From Bacilli bacterium (GTDB lineage Bacteria; Bacillota_I; Bacilli_A; ML615J-28; CAG-313), in the NCBI GenBank assembly GCA_017501465.1, contig JAFVWY010000018.1, positions 77,829 to 141,828 of the forward strand: a DNA stretch of 64,000 nt, in the 5' to 3' direction. Position 1 is the first letter of the stretch; each line of letters opens with the position of its first letter. The notes under the pieces are model-generated. The model was given only the letters and a program-made list of their open reading frames with translations. It did not search any database and was not told the origin of the DNA. Of this stretch, positions 19,529 to 62,659 are shown one piece after another. A program made the translations under genes and the position numbers.

Positions 19529-22500
19529 ATGAAAAAAGTTAGAATTTTATTAACGTCTGTTTTCGCTTTAGTTTTAGGCCTTTTCCTTGTTGCATGTGAA
19601 GGCGCACCTGTTCATCAACATACATTAGTATTTAATGAAGCAGTTGAAGCAACATGTACTGAAAAAGGTACAATTCAACATTATGAATGTACAAAATGTG
19701 AAAGAATTTACTCTGACATTGAATGCACTAATCAATTAAAACAAAGTGAAATTTATGTAGAAGCATTAGGACATACTTTAAAAGAAGTAGAACATGTTGC
19801 TCCTACTTGTAAAACTGAAGGTAACATTCACTATTATGAATGTGAAACTTGTGGAAATTATTATGAAGATGAAGCAGCTACAATTGTTTTAAGTGCTAAT
19901 GATGTAGTTATTCCATGTTCTGCTCATGAAGGTCTTGTTGAAAGAGAACAAGTTAATCCTGATTGTGAAAATGATGGTGTTATAGCTCATTTCTATTGTG
20001 CTGTTTGTGATAGAACATATAAAGATGCTGAAGGCTTTATAGAAATTAAAGGTGCACAATTAGTTATTCCAGCACTAGGACATGAATTAAAAGAACATGC
20101 TGCAGTTAGTGCAGATTGTGAAAATGCTGGTAACGTTCATTATTATGAATGTGAAACTTGTCATAAATATTATGAAGATGAAGCTGCAACAAAAGCATTA
20201 ACAGCAGAACAATTAGTAGTACCAGCACTTGGTCACAGTGTTGAATATCATGCTGCAATTGCTGCTGATTGTGAAAATGCTGGTAAAGTAGCTTATTACG
20301 AATGTAGTGTTTGTCATAAATATTTTGAAGATGAAGCTGCAACAAAAGCATTAACAGAAGAACAATTAGTAGCACCTGCACTTGGTCACAGTGTTGAATA
20401 TCATGCTGCAATTGCTGCTGATTGTGAAAATGCTGGTAAAGTAGCTTATTACGAATGTAGTGTTTGTCATAAATATTTTGAAGATGAAGCTGCAACAAAA
20501 GTATTAACAGAAGAACAATTAGTAGTTCCTGCACTTGGACATTCTCTAGTTCATCATGCAGAAGTTCCTGCAGTTGTTGGTAATCCTGGTTCTGCTGAAT
20601 ATTATCAATGTTCAGTTTGTGGTAAAGTATACTTAGATCAAGAAGCTACAGTTGAAACTTCATTAGATGAATTAACAAGATATGCTTATTTAATTAGTAA
20701 AAATGATGCTGCTACAAGTGGTTATTATATTGATTATACTGATTCTAAACATACATTTGTTGATGCTGAAAATAATGGTGTTTTCGTATCTAATAATAAA
20801 GGTGTAAATAGTGCTACTGCATATATGCATTTATTCTTTACATCAAGTGGTGTTGTATCATTTGATTATTCAGTTTCATCTGAAAGTGGATGGGATAAGA
20901 TGACTATTTATGCTTCAAACAATGGTGAAGCATATCGTGCTATTGTTAGTGGTATTTCTGGTATTCAATCAGGTAGCCAAACTTTAGTGGTTAATGCAGG
21001 TGATTATATTTACTTCCAATACAGTAAAGATAGTAGTGGAAATAAAAATGATGATATCGCAACTATTTCAAATATCGTATTTGTAACTGCTGATGTATAT
21101 GTTAAATCTGTATTAACATTTAATGCTAATGGTGGTGAAGAAGTTCCACAAATTGAAGCTTATGATGGCGTTGCTTTAACTGCTCCTGAAGCTGTGAAAG
21201 ATGGTTATTTCTTTGATGGTTGGTATACTGATGATACTTTAACTACTCCATTTGATTTTGCTGCTGGTTTACATGGTAATGCTACTGTTTATGCTAAATA
21301 TACAAAAGGTGTTAATGTAAGTTATGCTAATACTCAAGATTCTACAGTTGAATCTGAATTAGTAAGACCAAATTCAGCAGTAACTGTTCCTTCAGTTATT
21401 CCTACATCTTCAACTCAATATTTCAAGGGTTGGTATGTTGATGAAGCATGTACAGAATTATTTGATTTTGAAGCTGGCGTAAGTGTTGATACTGTTGTAT
21501 ATGCTGGTTGGAGAAACCCTGTTGTTTTATCTTTTGAAGCTAATAATGGTTCTACAATTGAAGCTATTTCTACAGATATTAATGTAGCTATTACTATGCC
21601 AAGTGATCCAACTAAAGATGCTCATAAATTTGCTGGTTGGTATGTAGATGAAGCTTGCACAATTGCATTTGCTCCTGAAAATGGTATTACAGAAGATACT
21701 ACAGTTTATGCTAAATGGTTAGCACAAGTAGAAGTAACATTTGTATTTAAGGGTGAAGTTGTTGGTACTCAAAAGGTTGACAATGGATCTGAATATTCAA
21801 TCGTTAATCCTGAAGGATTTGGTGAAATTATTGATGGTTGGTTCACTGATGAACAATTTGCAAATGAATATGTCGATGGTACTGTTTTAGTAGAAGGTAT
21901 CACTTTATATGCTAAACCTCATGCATTTGCTCCAGAGGGTGTATTAGTAAGCTTTGTCAATGGTGATGGTTCATCTAAGACTAAATATCCATGGATTTAT
22001 GATGTGGCAACTAATACTTTCTCATCAAGTAATCAAACTGTTGGAAGTAGTTATTCTACATTAGAAATTACTTTTGCAAAACAATCATTTGTTTCATTTG
22101 ATTACTTAGTTAATAGTGAATCTAATTATGACTTTATTATCGTAACTGTTAATGGAACTCAAGTATTATCTACTAAAGTTTCTGGCTATAATGGAAAAGA
22201 TGTATCTGGTTCATTTAGTGATACATTTGAAGCTGGTGATGTGGTTGTTATTCAATACAAGAAAGATAGCAGTGGTAACCAAGGTACAGATACAGCTACT
22301 ATTTCTAATTTAATAATTAACGATGGTGTTCCTACACTTGATATCGTTTTAGATTACCAAGATGAAGCTGTTGCTGATGTAACTGTTCAAACTGGTATCA
22401 ACACTACTATTAAAGATATTGAAAACTTTGAAAGTTATGCTCCTGCTGATACAGATGCAAGACATTTCGGTGGATGGTATTACGATGCTGAATGTACTCT

Positions 22501-34892: not shown

Positions 34893-35234
34893 ATGGCAAA
34901 AATTAAAAGATTTGGTGGGCTTTATTTTCTAGAAATAAATAATGGAGTCGTAAAAGAATTCGGTGGACTTAATAAGTATGTATTAAGAGATAATAAAATT
35001 TGTGAATTTAGTGGCAGAATCATATATACTATTGACGGAGATAAAATCAAAGAATTTAGTGGTAGACCAGTATTAGAGGTTTCTTTTGGTAAAGTTAAAA
35101 GATTTGGTGGTATGTATATAGCAACAATAGACGGTAATAAAATTAAAGAATTTGGTGGTAGGATATTATATGAAATTGATGGTTTTATTACCAATAGAGA
35201 GTTAATGATGTTAATTGCGTTGCTATTTGCATAA
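34893..35234 (+). CDS. Small protein of six tandem ~16-aa repeats (GG-R-x-I/L-Y-x-I-D-G-x-K-I-K-E-F) with a hydrophobic C-terminal tail
   Basis: AKIKRFGGLYFLEINNGVVKEF / GGLNKYVLRDNKICEF / SGRIIYTIDGDKIKEF / SGRPVLEVSFGKVKRF / GGMYIATIDGNKIKEF / GGRILYEIDGFITNRE, then LMMLIALLFA. RBS AAAGGAG 8 nt upstream. Confidence 0.55.
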   Translation: MAKIKRFGGLYFLEINNGVVKEFGGLNKYVLRDNKICEFSGRIIYTIDGDKIKEFSGRPVLEVSFGKVKRFGGMYIATIDGNKIKEFGGRILYEIDGFITNRELMMLIALLFA

Positions 35235-35305: not shown

Positions 35306-36045
35306 TGGTTATTAGAGATGGAAATTATTGTTATGATTTTTTTCCGATTTTATTTATTGTGTTAGGAACTATTGGCTTTATTTTTAATATAATAGCTTTG
35401 ATTAAGTCATTCAAAATGAAAAATAATTTAAAATATATTGTTATGGGTTTTGGTAATTTTGTAATTTTACTATACCTAGGAGCAATTGTTTTAGGTTTAA
35501 TTGGATTTGGACCAAGAGATTGTTGGGGTTACTTCTGGCGTAGTGCATCTTCATGGGTTAGTTTTGGTTTAAGTTGTGGAACTTTGTTATTTGGAATTGT
35601 TAACTTTATTTTGTATACTAAAACAAAATATAGAGTTCCTAATAAAAAAGACAAAGAGGATGAAATTCAAGGAATTGTGACAAATAATACTGCAATTGCT
35701 AAACAGCAATTAAATCAAAATGATGTACTATTTTATGTAAAATATAGTCAAGGTGCAATTTCAGTAACAGAAGATTATATTACAATTTATAAAAATCTAT
35801 TAAACTTTTCTAATTTTACTAAGGGAAGAGTATCTAAAGTAATTTTTATTAATGATATTCAAAGCGTAGAATATAAAGGTTGTGGTTGGTTTAGAGGAAT
35901 ACTTGGATTTACATTTAAACATCCTAATAAACCTGTTAGAGTACGTTTTGGTAAATGGTTTGTTTCAAGAAGAAAAAGATTTAATAAAAAAATGACACCA
36001 GTATATCAATATATTCTTTCAAAGGTAATTGAAAATAATAAATAA
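35306..36045 (+). CDS. Membrane protein: four N-terminal TM helices plus a C-terminal bacterial PH-like (bPH/YokE-like) domain
   Basis: ATG at 35306 after AGAGGTGA. The track GTG at 35296 lies inside the RBS. C-terminus 'GRVSKVIFINDIQSVEYKGCGWFRGILGFTFKHPNKPVRVRFGKWF' resembles bPH_2. Confidence 0.5.
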
Positions 36046-36150
36046 GGCTTTATAAGCCTTTTTTATTTTAGATATATTAATTAGGAAAACGTTTGCAATA
36101 TTATGTATAATATGTTAAAATGATAGAGTAATTAAACTAGGAGGAAAATA

Positions 36151-39100
36151 ATGTTTAAAAGAATTTCTTTATTTATAATTACTTTTATATTAATTTTTAC
36201 TGTAGTTGGATGTACAATGGGTCCATCTACTCAAAATAAAGATGAAAAGTATACAGTTACATTTGAATGTGAATTTGAATGTGAAATTGAAAGTGTTCAA
36301 GTTAAAAAAGGCGAATTGGTAGAACAACCTGAAACTAATGAACATGAAGGATATATATTCCTTGGTTGGTATAACGGCAAAGTTCTTTGGGACTTTGAAA
36401 AAGATACTGTTACCAAAAATATTACTTTAACAGCAAAATGGGAAGAACATACTCATGAGTTTGTTGAAGGCGAATGTGAATGTGGTGAAAAAGATCCAAA
36501 TTACGTCCCACCTCATGAACACGTATTTGTTGAAGGTGAATGTGAATGTGGTGAAAAGGATCCAAATTACGTTCCACCTCATGAACATGTATTTGTTGAA
36601 GGTGAATGTGAATGTGGTGAAAAGGATCCAAATTACGTCCCACCTCATGAACATATATTTGTAGAAGGTGAATGCGAATGTGGTGAAAAAGATCCTAATT
36701 GGAATGCTCCTGTTGTAGGTGACCCATTTACAATCACTTATCAATTAAATGGTGGTGCATGGTCATGGACTACTGGTAGTGTTAGCGCTCCTGCAAAAGG
36801 AATTGATTCAATATCAAATTTACCAGAAATATTCATGGCTGATTTCTATACATATTTATATGAAAATAATTTATTAAATTCATCTAAAGTTTCAACTAAA
36901 TTACAAGTAGCAACATGGGATGCGTTTAGTACACCAAATGGTGACCCAGTAGCTTTATATAATGCAACATCTACTGGTGGATATGGTGCTGCTGATGGTT
37001 ATAGTGAATTATTCTTTGATAGTGTTAATGGTTATGAAGCAGTTGGCGGATTCTTAGGAACAAGCCCTTATAAAGAAAAATACGCTAATGTTACGAAACA
37101 TATTATTCAATTAACAACTGCTAGATATTCAATGGCTACAACATCTGCAAGTTTCAAGGGTGCATGTGGATTTGTCCTTGATGGATATTTCTATGGAACT
37201 CAAGGTTTACTTGCAACTGATAAAGCTAATGCTGAAACATTTAATGCCTTACGTGCAGTTATTCCTACTCCAACAGTTGGTTATGTAGGAAGCACATCAT
37301 CTACTAATTCTTATCAAATATCAACTGGAAAAGTTGGGACTTTAGTTAAATTAGTAGCTCCTGTTAAAGAAGGTTATATGTTCTTAGGTTGGTATGAATC
37401 ACCAGATTTTAGTGGCAATGAAATTGATTCAGTTTCTAAAGAAACTACTCTATATGCAAAATGGTATGATTTAAGTTCTCCGGCTCCTAAATATAATATT
37501 AACTATGAATTAGATGGTGGAACTAATCCAAGTACAGCTCCTAAACAATATACTTTTGGTCAAGGCGCTGAATTAGTAGAACCTACAAAAGATGGCTATA
37601 TGTTTATGGGTTGGACAACAGATGCTGAAGGTGAAAACCTTATTACTTCTATTTCAAAATTTGCAGAAGGTGAAGTAACAGTTTATGCAAATTGGGTTGA
37701 AATTGATAAGAATTTATATACAATTACATATATATATTCAGATGGTAAATTACCAACTTATAATCCAACTACGATTCAAGAAGTAGCTGAATATGTATTT
37801 ACTGAGTATTATAAATGGTATAAACCAAGTGATGATTATGAAACATTTAAATCTAAAGTAATCGCTCAATGGAAAGATAAACAAGCTCAAGGTATTTATA
37901 AATTCTATAAACAAAATGGAAAAGATACTATTGATGAATCATATTTCTGTAATGCTTCTGAAAACTTTGAAGAATGGAATGCATGGTTTACAGTCTTCGA
38001 TTCTTTAGTAACAAAAGCAAATGGTGCACAAAATGCATGGAATAGTTACGTTGGTATTTTAAGACTTGGTCAAGTATTAAGTGGTAACGCTCCAACTACT
38101 TGGAAAGCAGACTTTAATACAACTTTATGTAATGCAACTAATATTGCAATTCCTCTAGTTACGGAATATAGACTTGGTCAAGAAGTTGAGCTTGTTGAAC
38201 TAGTAATTGATGATGGCAGAACTTTCCTTGGTTGGTATGATGAATTTGGTAATAAAGTTGAAAAGATTACATCAACTACTGAAGGTAATCTTGTATTAAC
38301 TGCTAGATGGAGTGAAGCAGTTCCTGTTGATTCATTTAGTATTACAAATCCTATTGATAGATTATTAAAATTATCTGACTATCAATTAACTTATAGTATT
38401 GGTCCTTCAAATGCAACGTTCAAGAAAGTTACATTTGAATCAACAAATCCTAGTGTATTAAAAGTTTCTGAAAAGGGTTTATTAGAAGCTGTAAGTTGTG
38501 GTACTGCAAAAATCTTAATTACAGTTCATGGTAACCAAGATTTAAATATGGAACTTGAAATTGAAGTTTATGTTGATCCATTTATTCGTGGTGAATTTAT
38601 GGAAAACTCATATGTTGTAGCTGGTGAATCTGTTCAATTAGGTGCAACATTAGTTGGTGCAAATACTACTAATTTAGTGTGGAAATCAAATACACCTTCT
38701 ATCGCAACTGTATCTCAAACAGGTTTAGTAACTGGTGTTAATGAAGGTCTTGCTGAAATCGTAGTTTACTGTGTTGATAATGATAATATTGCTTTTACTT
38801 TCTATGTAACTGTATTTGATAGTGAACCTACTGGTATTTTAAAATTATTAGCAGATAGCAACAATTCTGAAATTTATACAAAGAAAGATTTATTGATCGG
38901 TATTAAGATTGGTTCTGATGGTGCTTATTATTCTGATATCATAGGTAGCGTATCTAAATTATTATTTGAAGACTATGTTGTTCATGATGATTATTATTTA
39001 GCAAACCCATCTAATAAATCAACATTAAATGGTGATGGTAAAGGTGGAATTGATTTCATTACTGTTCACTATGCTGCTGATATGCCATATGCTCCATCTG

Positions 39101-39915
39101 CAACATTTAATGGTGGTAAAAACTTAGCTTCATACAACCAATCTTGTAATAGTAGTGGTACACAAGCTTCATGGCATTATAGTGTTGGTAATGACGGTAT
39201 TTGGTCTTGTCAAAATGAAAGTTATGGTGCATGGCATGCTGGTGCAAGCAAAAAAATGACTTGGGTAGATAGTGGTCTTACAATTCATGATGTTGGTAGT
39301 GATTTATATACTACTGATGTAACAATGGGTACAGATGGCTATTTCTATATTAAAGGTGTTAAAACTAACATTAAGAATACTTCAGGTGGTACTAAACTAA
39401 ATGGTCTAGGTTTAGGTGTTAAAGTAGAAGGTAATACAGTATATCTTGGTGGTCATTATCAAAATACATCTTATAACTATATCTCATCAACTGGTGGTAA
39501 TAATAACTCGATTGGTATGGAAACATCAGTTAGAGAAGGTTCAGATTTATGGTTAACATGGCAATATACTGCTCAACTTTGTGCTAAGTTATTAATCAAA
39601 TATGAATTACCACTTAATAGACTTGTTGGTCATCATTTCTTCTCTGGTAAATGGTGTCCACAACCAATGTTAGAAAATGATTTAGAAATCTGGTATGAAT
39701 TTGTTGAACTTACAAGACAACAAATGGAACTATATCAAAACTATTCTAACTATCAATTATCATTTACATCTAATAGTCAATATTTAGATGATAATGGTAG
39801 AGTAAAAGAATTACCTGATTATACACAATGTGTAACTTATACAATTACTTATAGTGATGGTGTAACTACAAAGACTGTTACATTCTCATCTATTCTTCCT
39901 GGTAATTTAGAATAA
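36151..39915 (+). CDS. Large surface lipoprotein (1254 aa): Flg_new (Listeria-Bacteroides) repeats, 4x22-aa Cys-rich tandem repeats, Big_2 domain, and a C-terminal N-acetylmuramoyl-L-alanine amidase (Amidase_2/PGRP)-like domain
   Basis: Lipobox VVGC|TMG. Flg_new at 'HEGYIFLGWYNGKVLWDFEKDTVTKNITLTAKW', 'GYMFLGWYESPDFSG', 'GYMFMGWTTDAEGEN', 'RTFLGWYDEFGN'. Big_2 'VLKVSEKGLLEAVSCGTAKILITVHG'. Amidase_2 motifs 'IDFITVHYAAD', 'ASWHYSV', 'AWHAG', 'NNSIGMETS', 'LVGHHFFSGKWCP' at about 39040-39700. Confidence 0.75.
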   Translation: MFKRISLFIITFILIFTVVGCTMGPSTQNKDEKYTVTFECEFECEIESVQVKKGELVEQPETNEHEGYIFLGWYNGKVLWDFEKDTVTKNITLTAKWEEHTHEFVEGECECGEKDPNYVPPHEHVFVEGECECGEKDPNYVPPHEHVFVEGECECGEKDPNYVPPHEHIFVEGECECGEKDPNWNAPVVGDPFTITYQLNGGAWSWTTGSVSAPAKGIDSISNLPEIFMADFYTYLYENNLLNSSKVSTKLQVATWDAFSTPNGDPVALYNATSTGGYGAADGYSELFFDSVNGYEAVGGFLGTSPYKEKYANVTKHIIQLTTARYSMATTSASFKGACGFVLDGYFYGTQGLLATDKANAETFNALRAVIPTPTVGYVGSTSSTNSYQISTGKVGTLVKLVAPVKEGYMFLGWYESPDFSGNEIDSVSKETTLYAKWYDLSSPAPKYNINYELDGGTNPSTAPKQYTFGQGAELVEPTKDGYMFMGWTTDAEGENLITSISKFAEGEVTVYANWVEIDKNLYTITYIYSDGKLPTYNPTTIQEVAEYVFTEYYKWYKPSDDYETFKSKVIAQWKDKQAQGIYKFYKQNGKDTIDESYFCNASENFEEWNAWFTVFDSLVTKANGAQNAWNSYVGILRLGQVLSGNAPTTWKADFNTTLCNATNIAIPLVTEYRLGQEVELVELVIDDGRTFLGWYDEFGNKVEKITSTTEGNLVLTARWSEAVPVDSFSITNPIDRLLKLSDYQLTYSIGPSNATFKKVTFESTNPSVLKVSEKGLLEAVSCGTAKILITVHGNQDLNMELEIEVYVDPFIRGEFMENSYVVAGESVQLGATLVGANTTNLVWKSNTPSIATVSQTGLVTGVNEGLAEIVVYCVDNDNIAFTFYVTVFDSEPTGILKLLADSNNSEIYTKKDLLIGIKIGSDGAYYSDIIGSVSKLLFEDYVVHDDYYLANPSNKSTLNGDGKGGIDFITVHYAADMPYAPSATFNGGKNLASYNQSCNSSGTQASWHYSVGNDGIWSCQNESYGAWHAGASKKMTWVDSGLTIHDVGSDLYTTDVTMGTDGYFYIKGVKTNIKNTSGGTKLNGLGLGVKVEGNTVYLGGHYQNTSYNYISSTGGNNNSIGMETSVREGSDLWLTWQYTAQLCAKLLIKYELPLNRLVGHHFFSGKWCPQPMLENDLEIWYEFVELTRQQMELYQNYSNYQLSFTSNSQYLDDNGRVKELPDYTQCVTYTITYSDGVTTKTVTFSSILPGNLE
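36448..36711 (+). repeat. Four tandem 66-bp repeats encoding H(T/E)H(E/V/I)FVEGECECGEKDPNYVPP
   Basis: Direct DNA repeats with only silent or near-silent differences (cacgtatttgttgaaggtgaatgtgaatgtggtgaaaaggatccaaattacgttccacct ...). The fourth copy is diverged at its 3' end. The minus-strand ORFs 36422-36744 in the track are repeat by-products. Confidence 0.9.
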
Positions 39916-39924
39916 TAAAAAAAG

Positions 39925-39956
39925 AAACGATAATAGTAACTATTATCGTTTTTTTA
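39925..39956 (+). terminator. Rho-independent terminator
   Basis: aaacgataatagt-aactattatcgttttttt: 12-bp stem plus a T-run, 10 nt after the stop. Confidence 0.85.
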
Positions 39957-40022: not shown

Positions 40023-42632
40023 ATGGTTAGAATAGAGAATTTATATAAAATATACAAGACAAGAAACAAAGAAAAATGCACTGCAGTAAACGATATATCA
40101 CTTAATTTAGAAGATCAAGGGTTTGTCTTTATTATTGGTAAAAGCGGTAGTGGTAAAACAACCCTTTTAAGTTTAATTGGTGGATTAGAAAGCATTACTA
40201 GTGGGGACATTATTGTTAATGGAATAGCTTTTTCTAAATTTAAATATAATGATTTTATTGATTATAGAAATCAAATGATTGGATATATCTTTCAAGATTT
40301 TCATTTAATTGATGAACTAACAGTTGAAGAAAATATTGCATTATCATTAGATTTACAAAACATTATATATACAAATGAAATTGAAGAAGCCCTAAAAAGT
40401 GTTGATTTAGAAGGATATGGCAAAAGATATCCTAAAGAATTATCTGGTGGGGAAAAACAAAGAGTTGCAGTCGCAAGAGCTTTGGTAAAAAATCCACGAA
40501 TTATTTTAGCAGATGAACCAACCGGAAACTTAGATAGTAAAACTACTACTCAAATATTAAATTTATTAAAAGAATTATCTAAGGAAAGATTGGTTTTGAT
40601 TGTTTCTCATAATTTAACAGATGCAAGAAATTATGCTGATAGAATTATTGAATTATCTAATGGTAAAATAATTAATGACTATATCAGAAATGAAGAATAT
40701 TGTTATGATTGTAAGATTGAAAACAATAACTTAATACTTCCAATCAATAAAAAAATTACTGAAGATGAAATACAAGTTATTAATAAAGAATTAGCAAATG
40801 GAAATATTAAAACTATTGAACAAACAGAAAATGTATTTATTAAAAATGATAGAACATATTCCGAGTCATTAATTGATTACAAGTTAAAGTCAAATAAATA
40901 TAATTTCAAAAAATTATGGAATTTAACATATACTTTTATCAGAAAAGACTTTGTTAAATTATCCATTTATTCTTTCGTTGTGGCAGCATTAATTATTATT
41001 TTAGGTTTAGCTCAATTAATTGTTAACTTCAATCCAACTGAAGTAATTCAAAACGAACTTGATGAAATGAATCAAACTGTTCTTTCAATTAATAAAATAA
41101 CACCAACTGTTGAATCTATAATTGCATTTGATGAAACAAGAATAATTGATATAACACAAAATGATATTGAAAAATTTAAGGGTGATGGTTATCATATTTA
41201 TGAATTGGTTAATTTAGTTTTAGATTATGGTCCAAACAGTAGTTTATCTCATTATCACAAATATGGCAGTATTAACCCTAAAGCTCCATATTATTCAGGA
41301 ACAAGAGGAACATTAATTACTGATGAAAGTTATGTCGAAAAAATATTTGATGGTCTTGAATATATATGTACAGCTAGTGAAATTAAAGACTATGGTATAT
41401 ATATTACTGACTATTCAGCAGATGCTATGATTTTGTATAAAACTGGCAACTTTAATGACTATGAATCTATTCTTGGTAATCATAAGAGTATGGCTGTTAG
41501 TCAATATGCTTATGTTAATGGTATCATAAAAACTGGTTATAAGGATAAATATGGAAGTATTGTTGAAAAGTTAAGTGATATTAATACATCACAAGATGAT
41601 ATTCAAGAATTAATGAAATCGAAAGAATACTTGGCTTTTTATGATGATGTAATTCAATCATATTCTATTAGCTATACTTTTAATAAAAATTTTAAAGATG
41701 ATTTCGTAGAGTCATTATCAAGAACTTGGTGTCCTGCTGGTAATTCCACTTTAACATATAATGGAATACCAAGAGAAATCGATTATAGAACATGGTTCCA
41801 ATTACATTCTCAAGAAAAGAAATTTCAATTAAAAGATAATGAAATAGTATTACATTATACAAGATATAATGAAATCTTTGGAACTAACTATAATTCAACA
41901 AATCTAAATCAATTTGTTCCTCACACTGCAACTTACAAGTATTATCAATATTATGATGAGTTAAGAACTAATGTGGTAGTAGAATTTGATGTTAATATTG
42001 TTGCTATATCTAATGTTAGAAATTATGCATCAGATGATGTCATGAAAAAATTATTACACGCTACTACTTTTACATCCTCTTTATACTTTAGTAGTATGCC
42101 AACAGACACCAATATTTTTGATCAAGTTTTTGATGAAGGATTTGAACCAAACAGTGTTGTTGCTCAGTCTTTATCTACAATGACTAAAGCTGTTAATATT
42201 TTTAGTGAATTCTTTTCTATTATTTTTATTGGGTTATGTATGTGTATATTCATTATCTTAGTAAATTATGGTATTAAGGCAATTAAAGAAAGAAAATATG
42301 AAATAGGTATTTTAAAAGCTTTGGGTATTAAAGATATTCATTTATTGTTTATCTTTGGTATGCAGATATTATTATTAATTTTATTAGTGATTATTTTATA
42401 TTACTTAGGATCTGTTGTATTTATTGGACTTTCTAATGATATTTTAGTTTCTTCATTATTAGAACTAGCTCCTAATCATTTCTTAATGGATATTGATGTT
42501 TTATATCTAAGAGTTCCATTTATGTTAAGAAATACAGTATTAGTTGTTGCGATTGTGTTAATATCTTTCATTATTCCACTTGCTGAATTAAAGGCTTTAA
42601 AGCCTACAAATATTATTAAAGCTAAGGAATAA
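40023..42632 (+). CDS. ABC transporter, NBD fused to an FtsX/MacB-type permease (869 aa)
   Basis: N-terminal NBD (Walker A GKSGSGKTT, signature LSGGEKQRVAVARAL, Walker B ILADEPTGNLD). Then a TM helix, a large extracytoplasmic domain and a C-terminal FtsX-like 3-helix bundle. Confidence 0.85.
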   Translation: MVRIENLYKIYKTRNKEKCTAVNDISLNLEDQGFVFIIGKSGSGKTTLLSLIGGLESITSGDIIVNGIAFSKFKYNDFIDYRNQMIGYIFQDFHLIDELTVEENIALSLDLQNIIYTNEIEEALKSVDLEGYGKRYPKELSGGEKQRVAVARALVKNPRIILADEPTGNLDSKTTTQILNLLKELSKERLVLIVSHNLTDARNYADRIIELSNGKIINDYIRNEEYCYDCKIENNNLILPINKKITEDEIQVINKELANGNIKTIEQTENVFIKNDRTYSESLIDYKLKSNKYNFKKLWNLTYTFIRKDFVKLSIYSFVVAALIIILGLAQLIVNFNPTEVIQNELDEMNQTVLSINKITPTVESIIAFDETRIIDITQNDIEKFKGDGYHIYELVNLVLDYGPNSSLSHYHKYGSINPKAPYYSGTRGTLITDESYVEKIFDGLEYICTASEIKDYGIYITDYSADAMILYKTGNFNDYESILGNHKSMAVSQYAYVNGIIKTGYKDKYGSIVEKLSDINTSQDDIQELMKSKEYLAFYDDVIQSYSISYTFNKNFKDDFVESLSRTWCPAGNSTLTYNGIPREIDYRTWFQLHSQEKKFQLKDNEIVLHYTRYNEIFGTNYNSTNLNQFVPHTATYKYYQYYDELRTNVVVEFDVNIVAISNVRNYASDDVMKKLLHATTFTSSLYFSSMPTDTNIFDQVFDEGFEPNSVVAQSLSTMTKAVNIFSEFFSIIFIGLCMCIFIILVNYGIKAIKERKYEIGILKALGIKDIHLLFIFGMQILLLILLVIILYYLGSVVFIGLSNDILVSSLLELAPNHFLMDIDVLYLRVPFMLRNTVLVVAIVLISFIIPLAELKALKPTNIIKAKE

Positions 42633-45782: not shown

Positions 45783-45970
45783 GTTGAAAAAATCGCTTGT
45801 ATAATGTTTTAAAACATTACGAAATAGAAAAGGTCTTCAGACCTTTTTTATTTTTGAAAACTTAAATATTTTCAAATCACTTTATATTTTTAAATAATTA
45901 TGTTAAAATAAGTTTGTACTATGGACTATTATCGTCTATTAACAAAATTACTAAAGAAAATGGTGATTGT

Positions 45971-47965
45971 ATGAAGAAAAGCTATAAAATAATGCCTGTA
46001 TTATTGTTATTAATATCAGTATCTTTAGGTGTTATTACATATATTAGTTATGAGAAAAAACATAAAATGTATACATACTTATTAGCAGCATTAATATGTT
46101 CAGTCATCTTATTGCTATCAGAATTAATAAGCCAATATCGCTTACAAAAACATATTAAACGTGGTGATTTCTACGAAAATAGATTAAAACTTTGGAATAC
46201 AATTTCTTATCGTGTTAAAAAATCTGGTGAACATGCCTTTAATGATTTACCAATTGGCATCGTGATTCTTTCTAATAAACATGAAATTATTTGGTCAAAT
46301 GATTGTGCTAAGAAGATTTTTAATAGTCAATTAAATGATATTCCACTTTCTAATATTGCTCCAATTTTAATAGAACATATAGAACTTGAACAAGAAAATT
46401 TCGTTGTAGAAATCTATGGTAATAAATATAATGTAGAGTATGACAAAAAATATAATATTTTATATTTAAGTGATATTACAGAAATTATTAAGATCCAACA
46501 AAAATATGATAATAGAATAACAGCATTAGGTTATATTAACGTCGATAACTTAGAAAACATATTATCCGATTTTGATGTACAAGAACGTGCTGAATTCATG
46601 TATAAAATTGTTAGTGAAATTGCGACATGGGTAGAAACTTTTGGAGCATATGTTCGTGCCTATAGTGATAACTCATATTTATTAGTAATGGATAAACAAC
46701 AATTACAAATGATGATCGATAATAATTTTTCAATCTTAGATTCAATTAAAGACTTGGGCCAAGGTAAGACTTTTAAAATTAGTTTGAGTATTGGTATTGC
46801 TTGTGTTGATGATAATATTGAAGTTTTGTCAAATCTTGCTAAAGAACAATTAGAACATGCTTTAAATAGAGGTGGTGACCAAGCCTCTGTTAAAATTGAT
46901 GATAAAATTAAATTCTTTGGTGCAAAAAATGATACTGCTCAAGCTGTCACTAAAGTTACTATGAGAATGAAAGCAGAAGAACTTCAAGACTTAATGAAAA
47001 ACTCAAGTGAGGTTATGGTTGTAGGTCATAGAGGAACTGATGCGGATGCTTTTGGTGCAACACTTGCTATTTATCGAATGGCAAAAGCATTAGGGAAAAA
47101 AGCATTTATCATCTTAGATAAAAATAGTATTGATTCAACGGTAACTAGAATTTATGAATCTATTCATAAAGATTACGTTGGATTATTAGATTGTATAATT
47201 ACACCACAAATGGCTCTTGCTAGAATGACAAGTGATACTTTATTGATGGTAGTTGACTGTCAAACTGTTTCACAATTATCTGAACCAAAATTAGTTAAGA
47301 AAGCTTCAAAAATTGGGGTTGTAGACCATCATAGAAGAGGCGATGATGCAATTGATAATTTATCATTCTATTTATCATCTACAGCTGCATCTTCTAGCGT
47401 TGAGTTAATTGTTCAATTATATGAATTCTTAGAAACTGAAATTGAATTTGATAAATTAGAAGCAACATGGTTATTATTAGGTATTATCGTTGATACTAAT
47501 AACTTTGTTTATAGATGTTCTGAAAAGACATTTAAAGTTGCATCAATTCTTGCTAAGTATGGTGCAAACATGACAGGTGTTAAAAAATTCTTAAAAGAAG
47601 AAATATCTGATAAAATTGCTCGAAATGAACTTATTAATGAACTTGATCAATTCCAAGGTCATGTAGGAATTGCTAAAGGTAAAGATAGTGTTATCTTTGA
47701 ACGTTCTGCTCTTGCTAAAATTAGTGATGAAATTATTTCGGTTGTTGGAATTGATGTGGGTATCACAGTTGGTAAAATTTCTAACAACACAATTGGTTTA
47801 AGTGCGAGAAGTTTAGGTACTATAAATGTTCAAATATTAATGGAACGTTTTGGTGGTGGTGGTCACTTTAATAACGCGGCTGCACAAGTTCATAGTGATA
47901 ACATTGATGAAGTTGTAAAAACATTAAAACAATATATCGATGAATATATTGAGAAAGAGGAAAAC
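45971..47965 (+). CDS. gdpP: Cyclic-di-AMP phosphodiesterase GdpP (2 TM, PAS, degenerate GGDEF, DHH, DHHA1). It has no stop codon of its own and reads through in frame into rplI.
   Basis: TM helices. DHH motif 'VVGHRGTDADAFGA'. DHHA1 'ERFGGGGHFNNAAAQ'. ATG at 45971 (GGTGA RBS) preferred over the track start at 45914. The frame is continuous to 48412. Confidence 0.8.
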
Positions 47966-48412
47966 ATGAAAGTTATTCTTATTAAAGACGTTAAAGGTCA
48001 TGGTAAAAAAGGTGAAATTATTGACTTTAATTTAGGCTTTGCAAATCACTTAATTAGAAGTGGACAAGCAATTGCTGTTACTGATGAAAACTTAAAACGT
48101 TTAGATGAACAAAAGAAACAAGCAGAAATCGAAGAAGAAAAGAAAGTTCAAGAAATGAAAGAACTTAAGAAAATTATCGAAGAAACTCCTATTAAATTCC
48201 CTGTAAAAGTTGGTAGTGAAGGTCGTTTATTTGGTTCTATTAATACTAAACAAATTGTTGATACTTTCCAAAAAGAAACTGGTAAAGTTTTAAATAAACA
48301 AAATATTAAACTTGACAAGAATATTAATGCTTTAGGTACTTATCAAATTCCAATTGATTTATATAAAGGTATTAAAGCAAACATTACTCTATATGTAGTT
48401 GAAAAGGAGTAA
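47966..48412 (+). CDS. rplI: 50S ribosomal protein L9
   Basis: MKVILIKDVKGHGKKGEIIDFNLGFANHLIRSGQAIAVT... with own RBS GAGAAAGAGG 5 nt upstream. It is in the same frame as gdpP with no intervening stop. Confidence 0.88.
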   Translation: MKVILIKDVKGHGKKGEIIDFNLGFANHLIRSGQAIAVTDENLKRLDEQKKQAEIEEEKKVQEMKELKKIIEETPIKFPVKVGSEGRLFGSINTKQIVDTFQKETGKVLNKQNIKLDKNINALGTYQIPIDLYKGIKANITLYVVEKE

Positions 48413-49824: not shown

Positions 49825-50889
49825 ATGAAAGATCGTTTAGAAGTTATTGCTAATAGATATAATCAAATAAACGAAATGTTACTAGATATTAACATTGTTA
49901 GTGATATCAAAAAACTAACTGAATTATCTAAAGAACAACGTTCTCTTGAAAAGATTGTAGTAAAATATAAAGAACTTCAAGAGTTAGAAGCTAACATTTT
50001 AGAAGCTAAAGAATTACTTCATGATTCTGATGAAGAATTAAGAAGTATGGCTGAACTTCAATTAGAAGAAGCTAAAGAAAGAATTGAAGTAGTTGAACAA
50101 GAATTAAAAATTCTTTTAATCCCTAAAGATCCTAATGATGAAAAGAACGTTATTATGGAAATTAGAGGAGCTGCTGGTGGAGACGAAGGTAACATTTTTG
50201 CTGGTGACTTATTTAGAATGTATTTTAAATATGCTGAATCAAAAGGATGGAAAATTGAAGTTGTAGATTCTCTTGCATGTGAAGCGGGTGGATATACACA
50301 AATTAGTTTCATGGTATCTGGTGATTCTGTTTATTCATATTTAAAATATGAATCTGGATCACACCGTGTTCAAAGAGTGCCAAGTACTGAATCTGCTGGT
50401 AGAATTCACACATCAACTGCCACAGTTTTAGTAATGCCTGAAGCTGATGAATTAGAAGTAAATTTAGATTTAAATGATGTTAGAATAGATACTTTCTGTG
50501 CATCAGGTCCTGGTGGACAATGTGTAAATACAACAAAGTCTGCAATTCGTGTAACACACATTCCTACTGGAATTGTGGTATCTTGTCAAGATGGTAAGAG
50601 TCAACACGAAAATAAAGCAAGTGCTTTAAAAGTATTACAAGCAAGATTATATGACTTTATGTTGCAACAAAAACAAGATGCCGAAGGTGCTGAAAGACTT
50701 GCTAAAGTTGGACATGGTGATAGAAGTGAAAAAATTCGTACTTATAACTATCCACAAAACAGAGTTACAGATCATAGAATCGGTTTTACTATCCAACAAT
50801 TAGATAGAGTTATGGAAGGAAAACTTGATCCTGTTATTGATGCTTTAATAGCAGAAGATCAAAAGAAAGCTTTAAGTGTAGAAGAATAA
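49825..50889 (+). CDS. prfA: Peptide chain release factor 1
   Basis: GGQ motif 'SGPGGQCVNTT' and the RF1-type tripeptide P-S-T in 'RVQRVPSTESAGRIHTSTATV'. Followed by prmC. Confidence 0.92.
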   Translation: MKDRLEVIANRYNQINEMLLDINIVSDIKKLTELSKEQRSLEKIVVKYKELQELEANILEAKELLHDSDEELRSMAELQLEEAKERIEVVEQELKILLIPKDPNDEKNVIMEIRGAAGGDEGNIFAGDLFRMYFKYAESKGWKIEVVDSLACEAGGYTQISFMVSGDSVYSYLKYESGSHRVQRVPSTESAGRIHTSTATVLVMPEADELEVNLDLNDVRIDTFCASGPGGQCVNTTKSAIRVTHIPTGIVVSCQDGKSQHENKASALKVLQARLYDFMLQQKQDAEGAERLAKVGHGDRSEKIRTYNYPQNRVTDHRIGFTIQQLDRVMEGKLDPVIDALIAEDQKKALSVEE

Positions 50890-53216: not shown

Positions 53217-53678
53217 ATGAATAAGAAGTTTCAAATATATATATTTTTAATAACTTTATTAATCGGTTTTACTTTCTTTTTAACAAGTTGTCATGAACAA
53301 AATCAAATTAGAATTAGAATAAAAGCTAGTGATGATTCAAAAGAAGCCCAACTTTTAAAAGAAGAAATAAAAGATGAAGTTATTGAATTATTAAAAGACA
53401 ATAAAAGTTTAGATATTAATCATTTAGTAGATTATTTAAATGTTTCTTTGTCTAAAAAATATCAAGATATTACAGTAGTATATACAAAAGAAGCTTTTCC
53501 TGCCAAATCTATTAATGGTAAAGTAATTCCTAGTGGAACATATCCTACCATCTTAATTAAAATAAAAGATGGACTTGGTAGTAATTGGTGGAGTGTTTTA
53601 TATCCTGAATATTTTAATATTTCTTATGAGTCAACTGATGAAATAGAGTATCGCAGTTATTTTATAGATAAATACTAA
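53217..53678 (+). CDS. Small lipoprotein, unknown function
   Basis: Lipobox LTSC|HEQ. 153 aa. Confidence 0.5.
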   Translation: MNKKFQIYIFLITLLIGFTFFLTSCHEQNQIRIRIKASDDSKEAQLLKEEIKDEVIELLKDNKSLDINHLVDYLNVSLSKKYQDITVVYTKEAFPAKSINGKVIPSGTYPTILIKIKDGLGSNWWSVLYPEYFNISYESTDEIEYRSYFIDKY

Positions 53679-57783: not shown

Positions 57784-59544
57784 ATGAAGAATTTAACAAA
57801 AAAACAAAAAAGTGATATTTTTGGTATTGCCTTACTAATTGTAGCATTTATAATTTATGCAATTATTAGCATTACATATAAGTACCCATTCGCTGAACAT
57901 ATAACACCTACTGCTTTAAATAAAGTAGCTATTCCAATAAGTGATCGTATTCAAGTTAGATGGTATGCGATCTTTGTTGTGGGTGGTGCTGCAGCATTAT
58001 CGGTATTTGGATATTATAGATATTTAAAACCTTTAAAACTTGATTCTGATAATACCTTAACTGGTGTAACATTTGGTATTTTATTTGGAATCTTGGGCGC
58101 TAGATTATATTATGTATTATTTGAACATACTGGAATTTCATTTGATGAAGGATTCTTTAGAGGTATCTTACAAATTATTAATCCAGCTGATGGCGGTTTA
58201 GCTATTCATGGTGCTTTATATGGTGCTTGTATTTATATTTTCTTTTTTACAAGAAAACGTGGATTAAAATTATTAGAAATAATTGAAATCGTTCTACCTG
58301 TGTTTATGCTTGCACAAGTTGTAGGAAGATGGGGAAATTTCTTTAATCAAGAAGCATATGGCCCATTAGTTGGTGGTTTTACTAATTATCCTTTAACGGA
58401 TGAACAATTAATTAGTCAAAGAGAAACCTTAAGACATTTATTAGTTCCTAACTTTGTTATTGATAATATGTATATTAAAAGTTATGTAAAAGTTGCTGGA
58501 TATTATCATCCTACATTCTTTTATGAAGGAGTAGCAAACCTTTTTGGTGCGGTTGCTTACTTAATTTTGAGAAAGAAGAGCAAGAAAATTTATATTGGTG
58601 ATGGTATAAGTTTTTATCTATTCTGGTATGGATTTGTTAGATTATTTATCGAAATTTTAAGACAAGATCCATTGACATTCCCTTTATTTGGTATGAATAT
58701 AAAGGTTGCAATTTTAACTTCTGTTATCTTTATGATTGTAGGTATTTTACTATTTATCTTAAGAAGAGTATTTAAATTCCATTTGGTTTCATGTCGTGAA
58801 TTTATTTATAATGGTGGTACTTTATGGAAAGAAGGATATGGTCCAAAAGGTAAAATCATTGAAGAAGAAAAAGAAGAAATTAATACAAATAAAGTAATCT
58901 TCTTTGACTGTGATGGAACTCTTTTAGATACTTTCACTTTAATTGAAAAAACAACGATGAGAGTATTTGATGAATTACTTCCGGATTATCAATATACAAT
59001 AGAAGAGATTCATGCTTTCTTTGGCCCTTTATTAAATGAAAGTTTTGCTAAGTACGCTAAAGATGAAGAACAATTAGAACAACTTGTTGAAAGATATCGC
59101 GTTCTTAATAAAGAACTTCATGAAGAATATATTAAATCTTTTGATGGTATTTATGAAATGCTACAAGAATTAAAACAAAAAGGAATTACAACGGTTATTG
59201 TTTCTAATAAAGTAACCTCTGCAATTATTCAAGGTTTACAAATTTGTGGTATTCATGAATTTATTGATGAAGTTGTTGGTGTAGAAAAACTTTCAAAACC
59301 TAAACCAGACCCTGATGGAATTTATGAATTAATGGAAAAATATAATATAGATCGAGGTTTATTTGTTGGTGATACAGAATTTGACATTACAACAGTTAAC
59401 AATGTCAAAACTAAATATCCTAACCTTTTATCAGTCGGTGTTACTTGGTGTAAAACATCACGTGAAAAGTTTAACGAACTAAATGCTGATTATGTAATTG
59501 ATAAACCAAGTGAATTGGTAGAAGTGATTAAAAATTATGAATAG
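57784..59544 (+). CDS. lgt: Prolipoprotein diacylglyceryl transferase (Lgt) fused to a C-terminal HAD-superfamily phosphatase (PpaX/phosphoglycolate-phosphatase-like)
   Basis: Lgt signature 'GRWGNFFNQEAYG' and seven TM helices in residues about 1-330. HAD motifs I 'IFFDCDGTLLDT', II 'VSNKV', K 'KPKPDPDG', IV 'FVGDTEFDITT' in residues about 370-586. This is one continuous ORF of 586 aa. Confidence 0.85.
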   Translation: MKNLTKKQKSDIFGIALLIVAFIIYAIISITYKYPFAEHITPTALNKVAIPISDRIQVRWYAIFVVGGAAALSVFGYYRYLKPLKLDSDNTLTGVTFGILFGILGARLYYVLFEHTGISFDEGFFRGILQIINPADGGLAIHGALYGACIYIFFFTRKRGLKLLEIIEIVLPVFMLAQVVGRWGNFFNQEAYGPLVGGFTNYPLTDEQLISQRETLRHLLVPNFVIDNMYIKSYVKVAGYYHPTFFYEGVANLFGAVAYLILRKKSKKIYIGDGISFYLFWYGFVRLFIEILRQDPLTFPLFGMNIKVAILTSVIFMIVGILLFILRRVFKFHLVSCREFIYNGGTLWKEGYGPKGKIIEEEKEEINTNKVIFFDCDGTLLDTFTLIEKTTMRVFDELLPDYQYTIEEIHAFFGPLLNESFAKYAKDEEQLEQLVERYRVLNKELHEEYIKSFDGIYEMLQELKQKGITTVIVSNKVTSAIIQGLQICGIHEFIDEVVGVEKLSKPKPDPDGIYELMEKYNIDRGLFVGDTEFDITTVNNVKTKYPNLLSVGVTWCKTSREKFNELNADYVIDKPSELVEVIKNYE

Positions 59545-61669: not shown

Positions 61670-62659
61670 ATGAAAAAAATAATTAAAATCTTATTAGTAT
61701 TTATTTTAGTGTTTTGTTTAGCAAGTTGTAATAAAACACCTAAAAAAGTTGAAAGTTTTCCAGAATATGTTAGTAAGTTAGAATCTTACAAACTAACTGG
61801 TAAATTATATTCAATGTTTCCAACAGGAACAAAAGAAAGTTTAATCACAGTGTATTATCAAAAACCTAATTTTTACCGTGTTGAAATAGATAATCAAACA
61901 AATGGTGATAAACAAATCATTTTAAAGAATAATGAAGGAGTCTTTGTTTTGGTCCCTTCAGTTAATAAAAGTTTTAAACTTAAAAGTGGTTGGCCTATTA
62001 ATTCATCCTATCCATATTTATTAGAATCTTTAAGTAAAGATTTTGTTAATGATGAAGATAAAGTAATCACGAAAGGTGACAATGAAACGACCATTGAAAT
62101 GGATGTAAAAATGTTTGAAAATGCTCAGATGACTAAACAAAAAGTCATTTTTGATAATAACAAAAGTACACCAAAAGAGGTTCAAATATTTGATGATAAA
62201 CAAAATTTAGTGACAAGATTTGTTATTGTTAATTTTGAAGAAGATCCTAAATTTGAAATAGATATGTTTAATAAAAGTCAAACAATGACATCATATTTTG
62301 AAACATATAGTCAAATTGAATATAATAGAAGTACAACCTATCCTACATATTATCCCAATAATACAAAATTAGTTGATGAGTTAAAATTAACTGATGATAA
62401 TTTAACTAAAGTGATTATGACTTATAGTGGAGAATATAATTATACAATAGTTGAACAGTTTATTATACCTTCTGAATTAGAAACAACTGATTATTTAGAT
62501 GGTGATATATATGTAATTGGTGATTATGTAGGGATTGTGAATGACAATAATATTACATTTGTCAGTCTTGGTATAGAATACTATATTGCGTCAAACGATG
62601 TTACTACTTTAGAAATGTTTAAAATGGGAAACTCCTTAATTGTAGAAACTAGTAAATAA
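61670..62659 (+). CDS. Lipoprotein, unknown function (possibly LolA-like/DUF4367-like fold)
   Basis: Lipobox LASC|NKT. 329 aa. Confidence 0.45.
   Translation: MKKIIKILLVFILVFCLASCNKTPKKVESFPEYVSKLESYKLTGKLYSMFPTGTKESLITVYYQKPNFYRVEIDNQTNGDKQIILKNNEGVFVLVPSVNKSFKLKSGWPINSSYPYLLESLSKDFVNDEDKVITKGDNETTIEMDVKMFENAQMTKQKVIFDNNKSTPKEVQIFDDKQNLVTRFVIVNFEEDPKFEIDMFNKSQTMTSYFETYSQIEYNRSTTYPTYYPNNTKLVDELKLTDDNLTKVIMTYSGEYNYTIVEQFIIPSELETTDYLDGDIYVIGDYVGIVNDNNITFVSLGIEYYIASNDVTTLEMFKMGNSLIVETSK

Follow-up and report, generated by a model that had tools for sequence, protein, structure and literature searches.

An extended Amidase_2 module and a 22-residue His/Cys repeat in a predicted surface lipoprotein of uncultured gut Bacilli

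Zinc-dependent amidases of the Amidase_2 class are already known from several settings. The lysins XlyA of B. subtilis (3hmb/3rdr) and PlyL (1yb0) and PlyG (2l47) of B. anthracis are phage or prophage enzymes with catalytic domains of about 155 residues and no lipid anchor. The staphylococcal proteins AmiA (Atl, 4knk/4knl) and AmiE (3lat) are Amidase_2 surface autolysins with enzyme-positioning repeats that act on the wall of their producer. In E. coli, AmiD is an outer-membrane lipoprotein, a zinc Amidase_2 enzyme tethered by a lipobox-lipidated cysteine, and animals use the common T7-lysozyme/Amidase_2 fold in the peptidoglycan recognition proteins (PGRPs) of innate immunity. Here, we describe a gene in a 64,000-nucleotide stretch of the genome of a Bacilli bacterium (assembly GCA_017501465.1, contig JAFVWY010000018.1; hereafter the window) whose predicted product joins a domain of this class to a lipoprotein signal and a long stalk of Flg_new, His/Cys and Big_2 units.

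Each of the described systems resembles the window protein in part. XlyA, PlyL and PlyG are the best sequence and fold matches to its amidase domain, with the Zn ligands and the Glu/Lys pair aligning residue by residue and core TMt values of up to 0.80. However, they have essentially no loop where the extended family described below carries an 80-161-aa beta-subdomain, and they are without its N- and C-terminal accessory subdomains. AmiA and AmiE match the module at a Foldseek E of ~1e-4 and a TMt of ~0.6, but carry GW-type wall-binding repeats and have no lipid anchor, no beta-insertion and no stalk of Flg_new, Big_2 or His/Cys units. AmiD is tethered in the manner proposed here for the window protein, yet it works in the Gram-negative periplasm, on a short tether and with PG_binding_1 as its C-terminal domain, without a long stalk or an insertion, and it was absent from the top Foldseek structural matches of the module.

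The gene occupies positions 36151-39915 (+) of the window and encodes 1254 aa. From the N-terminus, the domain order is a lipobox, one Flg_new repeat, four His/Cys units, three further Flg_new repeats (two of them split), two Big_2 domains and the C-terminal Amidase_2 domain. A first-pass annotation, made from the sequence alone, had listed a lipoprotein with Flg_new repeats, four 66-bp tandem repeats, Big_2 and Amidase_2, and all of these elements are present where it had placed them, including the coordinates of the open reading frame (ORF). The NCBI record of the protein (MBR2892073.1) bears only the name 'InlB B-repeat-containing protein [Bacilli bacterium]', NCBIfam recognises the TIGR02543 repeat alone, and a literature search for the architecture returned no matching paper. 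The identical 1254-aa protein is found on 10-11 contigs from ruminant gut metagenomes of different samples. With high confidence, the protein can be read as a lipoprotein that carries an active-type Amidase_2 domain with a family-wide insertion and a repeat serving as spacer. Two components that recur in the surface proteins of uncultured gut and rumen Firmicutes, a 365-aa Amidase_2 module and a 22-aa His/Cys repeat, become definable here; current annotation names neither.

The amidase module and its relatives

In Pfam, Amidase_2 (PF01510) matches aa 967-1172 at 56.6 bits (cutoff 26), with a single stretch spanning profile positions 5-131, and a match of 206 residues on a 131-position profile implies an insertion. 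The first half of the core (aa 970-1032; 39058..39246, +; Pfam and alignments) contains FITVHY, with the Zn ligand His973 invariant in 60 of 60 family members, and AWHAG at residue 1027. The second half (aa 1115-1174; 39493..39672, +; alignment to XlyA 3hmb and PlyL 1yb0) contains GGNNNSIGME at 1115 and GHHFFSGKWCP at 1160, and with them Glu1124, His1161, Lys1167 and Cys1169. The motifs picked out at first reading (AWHAG, NNSIGME and GHHFFSGKWCP) are thus confirmed in the sequence, and the Pfam search of the C-terminal region bears out the domain assignment.

Searched against the PDB by phmmer, the protein matched XlyA (3hmb/3rdr), PlyL (1yb0/2ar3) and PlyG (2l47) in two pieces around the insertion, and a profile of 60 family members matched XlyA at an E of 1.2e-27. 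H973 in FITVHY and H1161 and C1169 in GHHFFSGKWCP align with the Zn-ligand motifs of XlyA and PlyL, the latter segment lying opposite H-x5-K-x-C of PlyL, while the catalytic Glu corresponds to E1124 in NSIGME and the Lys to K1167 in SGKWC. In PlyL, the Zn ligands are H29, H129 and C137, a numbering consistent with the alignment, and the catalytic Glu and Lys are E90 and K135. All three Zn ligands are therefore kept in the window protein, and the five residues (H84, E235, H272, K278 and C280 in module numbering) are invariant in alignments of 20 and of 60 diverse relatives. Foldseek against the PDB matched the catalytic core alone, at a probability of 1.0 (TMt 0.80 to XlyA, TMq ~0.35), with XlyA, PlyL, PlyG, an Enterococcus prophage amidase, AmiA, AmiE, AmpD and LysGH15 among the core matches. 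On this sequence and model evidence, the C-terminal domain is probably a catalytically competent zinc N-acetylmuramoyl-L-alanine amidase.

The same residues bear on a different proposal, raised in part at first reading, in which the Amidase_2 fold would merely bind muropeptides, for adhesion to other bacteria or for sensing, as in non-catalytic PGRPs. An adhesin-like scaffold of Flg_new and Big_2 domains, a large insertion near the active-site strands and a fold common to PGRPs, with weak Foldseek matches to PGRP-LB and PGRP-Ialpha, would all suit such a protein. Non-catalytic PGRPs typically lose the Cys ligand, however, and sensor-type PGRPs are without the catalytic Cys, whereas the extended amidase family keeps it together with all other catalytic residues, H, H, C, E and K being invariant across 60 diverse members. 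The nearest structural and sequence relatives are, moreover, active lysins. With the catalytic Cys, Glu and Lys all retained, a sensor or adhesin without activity is a highly improbable reading of the domain.

Between AWHAG and GGNNNSIGME lies an all-beta insertion subdomain (aa 1032-1114; 39244..39492, +; AF2 model and alignments), whose 83 aa agree with the insertion of about 85 aa reported at first. It is not special to the window protein; instead, it is a conserved subdomain across an amidase subfamily, with a length of 80-161 aa and a median of 115 among the 70 members in which both flanking motifs could be located, so that the 83 aa of the window protein stand at the short end. In the family profile, XlyA residues 21-85 correspond to positions 152-216 and residues 87-147 to positions 317-377. 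The two halves abut in XlyA, whereas ~100 profile positions part them in the extended family. AlphaFold2 (AF2) places the strands of the insertion at module residues 149-224 with pLDDT >90, and W149, N179, G180, N195, G198, Y208 and Y214 (module numbering) are kept family-wide. A WWCY...GRIC segment found in most relatives is missing from the subgroup of the window protein.

The core is flanked by two further conserved parts. The N-terminal accessory subdomain (aa 890-969; 38818..39057, +; alignments and AF2) has the conserved pattern HNSN...YYxDIxGSVSKLLF and no Pfam match. The C-terminal accessory part (aa 1175-1254; 39673..39912, +), conserved in the family, is modelled as a long helix (H282-308 of the module) followed by a small beta-sandwich (strands E313-360) with weak Ig-like Foldseek matches. 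For the 365-aa module as a whole, AF2 with a 60-sequence alignment gave a mean pLDDT of 93.4 and a pTM of 0.93, which argues for a single compact rigid body. A search with these C-terminal 365 aa returned 99 proteins, all with the insertion and many covering 97-100% of the query at 31-44% identity, and the closest homologs are already auto-annotated as amidases. No solved structure in the PDB contains the whole extended module by Foldseek. The insertion and both flanking subdomains probably lengthen the substrate groove and in this way stand in for the classical wall-binding domains that the protein lacks. The new point is that this extended module with its insertion can be defined as a cellular and expanded subfamily, for which no structure has been solved.

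An amidase on such a scaffold had been thought unusual. A scan of one genome per GTDB species contradicts this, with at least 201 stretches containing relatives, of which the best 80 were kept, representing 77 distinct loci. The relatives lie almost all in metagenome-assembled genomes (MAGs) of uncultured gut and rumen Bacillota, under labels such as Bacilli bacterium, Erysipelotrichaceae bacterium, 'Staphylococcus sp. CAG:324', 'Coprobacillus sp. CAG:698', uncultured Mollicutes, Acholeplasmatales bacterium and some Clostridia. In several MAGs, the module is found at 3-6 separate loci (six in JAZKYN01, five in SVBG01), in some cases as tandem genes, and it frequently forms the C-terminal end of proteins 900 to ~2,400 aa long. 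A subfamily of ~460 aa is without a signal peptide and lies in a housekeeping context (yqeH ... hrcA-grpE), not in prophage. An origin as a phage endolysin was considered for the window gene and rejected in view of its chromosomal housekeeping context and its lipobox. Searches for the extended module in 50,697 phage records (protein mode) and 2.9 M IMG/VR viral contigs gave partial matches to the catalytic half only, and the BFVD viral structure models matched the core only by Foldseek (TMq <=0.41). At locus L082, a NamZ-type exo-beta-N-acetylmuramidase gene (662-1924) and a ROK kinase gene lie ~6 kb from a signal-less member of the family, which hints at peptidoglycan salvage in that organism.

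The predicted tether, the His/Cys repeat and the proposed stalk

The protein begins with a predicted lipoprotein signal peptide, MFKRISLFIITFILIFTVVG-C21 (36151..36213, +; from sequence), in which a K/R n-region is followed by a hydrophobic core and the lipobox VVGC, in agreement with the pattern [LVI][ASTVI][GAS]C; Cys21 would be lipidated. All ten aligned orthologs likewise start with a lipoprotein signal. The window contains lgt at 57784-59544, and no Lsp was seen in its 64 kb.

Past the first Flg_new repeat, four tandem 22-aa His/Cys units of 66 bp each (aa 100-187; 36448..36711, +; Tandem Repeats Finder (TRF) and protein register) form a proposed metal-stabilised stalk. TRF reports the 66-bp unit at 36460-36700, with 3.7 copies, 94% matches and a score of 419. 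In order, the units are HTHEFVEGECECGEKDPNYVPP, two copies of HEHVFVEGECECGEKDPNYVPP, and HEHIFVEGECECGEKDPNWNAP, and their form in the window is H-x-H-x-F-V-E-G-E-C-E-C-G-E-K-D-P-N-Y-V-P-P. The description of this array as a linker, offered in the first-pass annotation, agrees with its position in the stalk and with the four nearly invariant candidate ligand residues per unit. Neither Pfam (E up to 10) nor NCBIfam gave a significant match to a known domain, and phmmer found no match in the PDB.

The repeat is not specific to this gene. An exhaustive phmmer search with the four units against 1.84 billion representatives found them in 453 clusters at E <= 1e-3, 248 at <= 1e-10 and 42 at <= 1e-30. 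Among the best 150 proteins, a period of exactly 22 aa is dominant, copies usually number 2-4 but reach 20, and the consensus is PP-H-E-H-x-F-V-E/D-G-K-C-E-C-G-E-x-D-P-N-Y-V; about two-thirds of those beginning with Met have a lipobox-like start. Homolog searches, regular-expression mapping and Pfam point to a recurrent architecture of a lipobox Cys, a few residues, 4-6 units and then an enzyme. The unit is widespread ahead of many unrelated enzymes, including Amidase_2 (also with the insertion), CHAP, NlpC/P60 with SH3b, GH18, GH5 cellulase, pectate lyase and GDSL lipase, while NAGPA proteins carry the array at the C-terminus. Seeing the 22-aa H2C2 unit as a widespread and uncatalogued stalk module of lipoprotein exo-enzymes is new. 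In three database proteins (P0253, P0271 and P0275), 5-7 units are followed by a C-terminal Pfam Ribosomal_L27A match of 47.6 bits, an odd combination for a presumably membrane-associated protein.

The units may fold around a metal. Extraction with a hidden Markov model (HMM), which imposes no His or Cys requirement, yielded 661 units, in which, among residues present, conservation is ~95-99% at H1, H3, G8, C10, C12 and G13 (H1 ~95%, and H3, C10 and C12 ~99% each). An AF2 model of aa 21-450 gives the four units a pLDDT of ~74-85, each with a small hairpin ('EE--EE----E'), so that in the model they look like folded knuckles more than a disordered linker. Since the H2C2 residues are conserved, each unit may be stabilised by a metal ion such as Zn, a view that we favour slightly. 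Cysteine is unusually rare in exported Firmicutes proteins, which makes Cys-rich extracellular repeats unexpected there and lends metal binding some added weight. Zinc-knuckle-type modules and the streptococcal Pht histidine-triad proteins likewise repeat short motifs in which His and/or Cys ligands are conserved, and Pht, with its repeated metal-binding motifs on a surface lipoprotein, offers a functional analogy to the array. However, no sequence similarity to either was detected, and the motif H-x-H-x6-C-x-C-G-x2-D-P-N-Y with its strict 22-aa period is distinct. If the reading is true, a metal-stabilised spacer of adjustable copy number would represent a new design principle for enzyme display in sortase-poor lineages.

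A longer His/Cys element lies at aa 24-60 of a 1645-aa protein elsewhere in the window (19529-24466), directly past its lipobox: HQHTLVFNEAVEATCTEKGTIQHYECTKCERI, with the motif HQHTLVFNEAVEATCTEKGTIQHYECTKC. Similar H-x-H...ATCTExG...C-x-x-CG elements stand beside 22-aa units in many database proteins. Together, the long-form and 22-aa elements suggest a broader family of extracellular His/Cys mini-modules.

Comparison of orthologs indicates what the array does within the stalk. The 11 orthologous proteins aligned show colinearity and good conservation between 'PVVGDPFTITYELNGG' and the C-terminus, while the N-terminal stalk is swapped. The window protein, L001 and L005 have a lipobox, Flg_new and 3-4 His/Cys units. 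In the same position, the other eight orthologs have a lipobox, a Big_2-like domain and at least three extra Flg_new repeats, which are far more numerous in L006 and L016. As the array is interchangeable with generic beta-rich spacer domains, it most readily fits a role as spacer or stalk, not a function specific to the amidase. A different function for the array would be capture or storage of metal at the surface, by the logic of the streptococcal histidine-triad lipoproteins, or a metal-free spacer with redox or cross-link chemistry. In favour of such a function are the four conserved residues of ligand type in each 22-aa unit, the abundance of acidic residues and the tandem arrays on lipoproteins, which run to 20 units, and since Cys is usually avoided in exported Firmicutes proteins, its retention implies selection. 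The array is nevertheless almost always joined to an enzyme or adhesin domain and not to metal-uptake components, no metal transporter is linked to it within the window, and its exchange for Flg_new repeats in orthologs, together with the discrete small folded units predicted by AF2, leaves these functions very unlikely.

The array has also changed in number. There are three copies in L001 and four in the window protein and L005, a difference of one unit, in register. Internal units are identical at 64/66 nt within the window and at 66/66 within L005, against 37-53/66 between genomes, and the variable position of the unit is homogenised per genome (E9 in the window, K9 in L001 and V9 in L005). 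In-register copy change together with homogenisation within genomes points to ongoing unequal recombination or gene conversion. The array had been proposed as a hot-spot of slippage or recombination. This holds on an evolutionary scale, between species, but not in the sense of a contingency locus: no strain-level copy variation is on record, the 90% cluster of the window protein being a single member, and an exact DNA pattern scan of JGI metagenomes for the repeat returned 0 matches.

The remainder of the stalk consists of Flg_new repeats (PF09479; four stretches, 121.7 bits, E 1.4e-35; TIGR02543 75.7 bits) and Big_2 domains (PF02368; two stretches, 71.5 bits against 22.8, E 5.6e-20). Flg_new repeat 1 (InlB B-repeat, beta-grasp; aa 33-99; 36247..36447, +) is supported by Pfam and by AF2 at a pLDDT of ~90, and contains a short 12-bp repeat encoding FECEFECE at 36261-36295 (TRF). 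Repeat 2 (aa 192-440; 36724..37470, +) is split after 'NGG' by a ~190-aa helical insert, with Pfam matching the C-terminal half only and AF2 supplying the remainder. Repeat 3 (aa 447-517; 37489..37701, +) is canonical and unsplit, and gives the best Pfam stretch (aa 448-513, positions 1-64/65). Repeat 4 (aa 522-722; 37714..38316, +) is again split after 'NGG', by a ~140-aa insert; Pfam matches only its C-terminal half (E 1.2e-5), whose 25.7 bits fall just below the gathering score of 27. The two Big_2 Ig-like domains (aa 726-810 and 811-889; 38326..38817, +) are matched by Pfam, also as Big-like.

The Flg_new model superposes on the InlB B-repeat 2y5p with a root-mean-square deviation of 1.7 Å and a TMt of 0.84 (Foldseek), but repeats 2 and 4 of the window protein differ from it in being split by inserts of 140-190 aa. 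The insert of repeat 2 is modelled as helices at model residues 204-348 with pLDDT >90, and by analogy the insert of repeat 4 may be helical as well. Neither insert has a Pfam match, and Foldseek found no PDB counterpart of the modelled repeat-2 insert beyond the B-repeat itself. The repeat-2 region is colinear and conserved across all orthologs, and many ~600-aa Flg_new lipoproteins from Bacilli MAGs have the same N-terminal architecture at 25-37% identity. Helical inserts in Flg_new repeats are a new observation.

Own wall or foreign peptidoglycan

In the proposed mechanism, lipidation at Cys21 would anchor the protein to the membrane, and ~870 residues of Flg_new, His/Cys and Big_2 units would act as a stalk that holds the amidase off the membrane, within or beyond the peptidoglycan layer of the host. 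There, the enzyme would cut the MurNAc-L-Ala bond, with the insertion and flanking subdomains supplying substrate binding in place of classical wall-binding domains, and with the His/Cys units, as small knuckles, providing an interchangeable and length-adjustable spacer. Its most probable role would be remodelling or autolysis of the producer's own wall, in growth, separation, sporulation or germination. This role is favoured because the host appears walled, and we hold it tentatively, as a question that stands close to balance. The explanation as a whole, including the identity of the enzyme, the stalk, the own-wall role and metal-stabilised units, seems to us modestly probable.

The gene content suggests that the host is probably walled and spore-forming. 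The Pfam score of a SpoIIR-family gene at 53217-53678 is 62.8 bits (cutoff 25), and the gene adjoins prfA, prmC and sua5, which is the arrangement of B. subtilis. A GerS-like lipoprotein at 61670-62659 is a weak match (34 bits). These genes hint that sporulation and germination functions are kept in a reduced uncultured Bacilli lineage. When E. coli dcw-cluster proteins were used as probes against the window and 79 loci (883 kb), two MAGs were found to have giant amidase-module genes (L013, 7481-12161; L032, 7310-10786) directly upstream of the division and cell-wall cluster, with rsmH and then a class B penicillin-binding protein (PBP; PBP_dimer and Transpeptidase) immediately downstream. L032 and ortholog L005 come from one MAG. 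A host with no wall or a thin one, as considered in the first-pass annotation, is disfavoured, because a SpoIIR-family gene lies in the window and class B PBPs occur in the MAGs of close relatives. Among related uncultured orders, some families are predicted to be walled and spore-forming and others to be without peptidoglycan (PMC10868615; PMC7301438). Sortases are predicted to be missing in RFN20 and ML615J-28, and precursor synthesis to be partly eroded among the related orders (PMC10868615; PMC7301438), and related orders may need scavenged muropeptides (PMC10868615).

An own-wall role is supported by the linkage of two paralogs to the dcw cluster, by signal-less paralogs and by the sporulation genes, and the signal-less subfamily and the division-cluster linkage fit action on the wall of the producer. 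Several points weigh against this role and against the metal-stabilised stalk that goes with it. The window protein has no recognised wall-binding domain (LysM, SH3b, SLH, CWB or SPOR). No conserved operon partner was found either, as 85 neighbouring ORFs of related loci clustered into locus-specific housekeeping groups only. PBPs were found in related MAGs but none within the window, and the SpoIIR-family match, at 62 bits, does not reach the NCBIfam equivalog cutoff of 151.9. Housekeeping autolysins do not usually occur as several paralogs in one genome, borne on giant adhesin-like proteins, and a stalk that also carries polysaccharide- and lipid-degrading enzymes would suit outward digestion about equally well. 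Within a His/Cys unit, a regular hairpin would also place H1 rather far from C10.

Such an outward role can be stated in its own terms: the stalk would present the amidase beyond the cell surface to the peptidoglycan of foreign gut bacteria or to free wall fragments. Stem peptides and glycan might then be taken up, possibly feeding an incomplete precursor synthesis, or competitors might be lysed. The occurrence of the module at several loci per genome, at the tips of proteins of up to ~2,400 aa, is consistent with this, as is the presence of the same lipobox and His/Cys stalk on GH5, GH18, pectate lyase, GDSL and NAGPA proteins, whose substrates are external. Also encoded in the window are a 2,499-aa lipoprotein with an S8 protease and leucine-rich repeats (LRRs) and oligopeptide ABC components. 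Pfam detects no classical wall-targeting domain in the window protein, and one family member has a NamZ exo-muramidase gene nearby. Furthermore, loss of sortase and of precursor steps, with possible muropeptide scavenging, has been predicted in related uncultured orders (PMC10868615), although that prediction may not apply to the source organism. However, the amidase gene has neither a muropeptide transporter nor a MurQ-type catabolic gene linked to it, two paralogs lie directly beside the division and cell-wall cluster, and one subfamily is without a signal peptide. Foreign peptidoglycan is thus a possible substrate, but on the unlikely side, and we lean slightly towards the host's own wall. 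A bolder combination, in which the unit is an undescribed extracellular zinc-knuckle stalk by which gut and rumen Firmicutes adjust the reach of lipid-anchored exo-enzymes, and the amidase family harvests foreign peptidoglycan or muropeptides in uncultured Bacilli with eroding precursor synthesis instead of serving in housekeeping autolysis, appears distinctly unlikely. Peptidoglycan has been lost repeatedly in these Bacilli lineages (PMC10868615), and whether expanded amidase families act on own or foreign walls bears on how this loss proceeds.

Genomic surroundings

The window has ~29% G+C, its large ORFs all lie on the + strand, and its gene content is that of an ordinary chromosome: oligopeptide ABC components, SSB, PEPCK, gdpP-rplI, dnaB, prfA, prmC, sua5, uvrA, lgt, a trxB-like gene and whiA. 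A terminator-like hairpin at 36044-36060 closes the gene upstream of the amidase gene, and 3' of it lies a candidate sigma-70-like promoter (TTGCAA-17-TAAAAT with TG; 36092..36121, +), for which the evidence is weak, promoters in the region being no more numerous than in shuffled sequence. Terminator-like sites number 4 against 1.2 expected. A second hairpin with a 16-pair stem and a T-run (39921..39955, +) stands directly 3' of the stop codon, and the amidase gene, bracketed by the two hairpins, looks monocistronic. In orthologs, the beta-lactamase-fold gene is found upstream in L002 and L021, and PEPCK downstream in L002 and L004.

Directly downstream of the amidase gene, an 869-aa fusion protein (40023-42632) consists of an ABC ATPase (FtsE/LolD/MacB-like), a permease of the FtsX type and an extensive extracytoplasmic region. 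Control of the amidase in the manner of FtsEX was considered and rejected: FtsE is the best NCBIfam match of the ATPase but falls below the cutoff, a strong terminator separates the two genes, and the adjacency is missing at orthologs and paralogs.

Five giant surface proteins (2499, 779, 951, 1146 and 1645 aa), at least four of them with lipoboxes, are encoded in a row at 3347-24466. The 2499-aa protein has S8 subtilase, PA, Fn3-like and Big_2 domains and many BspA-type LRRs, and the 779-aa protein has no Pfam match. The amidase had been described as sharing its scaffold with the operon of these giant lipoproteins. The likeness of scaffold is real, as the 1645-aa protein has five Flg_new repeats and the 2499-aa protein has Big_2, but the amidase gene lies ~11.7 kb and several unrelated genes downstream of them.

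The use of stop codons in the window is skewed. In-frame TGA occurs 0 times in the 19,452 codons of 35 large ORFs, against 1,613 out-of-frame occurrences, and the 39 long + strand frames end in TAA (30) or TAG (9). The sole release factor in the window (49825-50889) has the RF1-type PST motif. This suggests that TGA is avoided or unassigned, possibly via loss of RF2. Genetic code table 4 was rejected, as Trp is encoded by TGG and no TGA is in frame. Some related loci do have TGA at the ends of long ORFs.

Two ORFs join functions in unusual ways. At 45914-48412, gdpP (PAS, GGDEF-like, DHH and DHHA1; a cyclic-di-AMP phosphodiesterase) runs into rplI in one 832-aa ORF, the L9 part of which begins MKVILIKDVKG at ~aa 685; either the two genes are truly fused or a stop codon has been lost. 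The lgt ORF (57784-59544) encodes Lgt fused to a HAD-family phosphatase domain in 586 aa, whereas lgt and the HAD phosphatase are adjacent separate genes in Bacillus.

Finally, a 113-aa ORF at 34893-35234 consists of degenerate ~16-aa repeats (..KIKEFGGR.LYEIDG..) with no family match. It sits between a gene for a 249-aa membrane protein and a truncated-looking beta-lactamase-fold gene (278 aa), whose best NCBIfam match, to the 3-succinylated cholic acid synthase family, falls far short of the cutoff.

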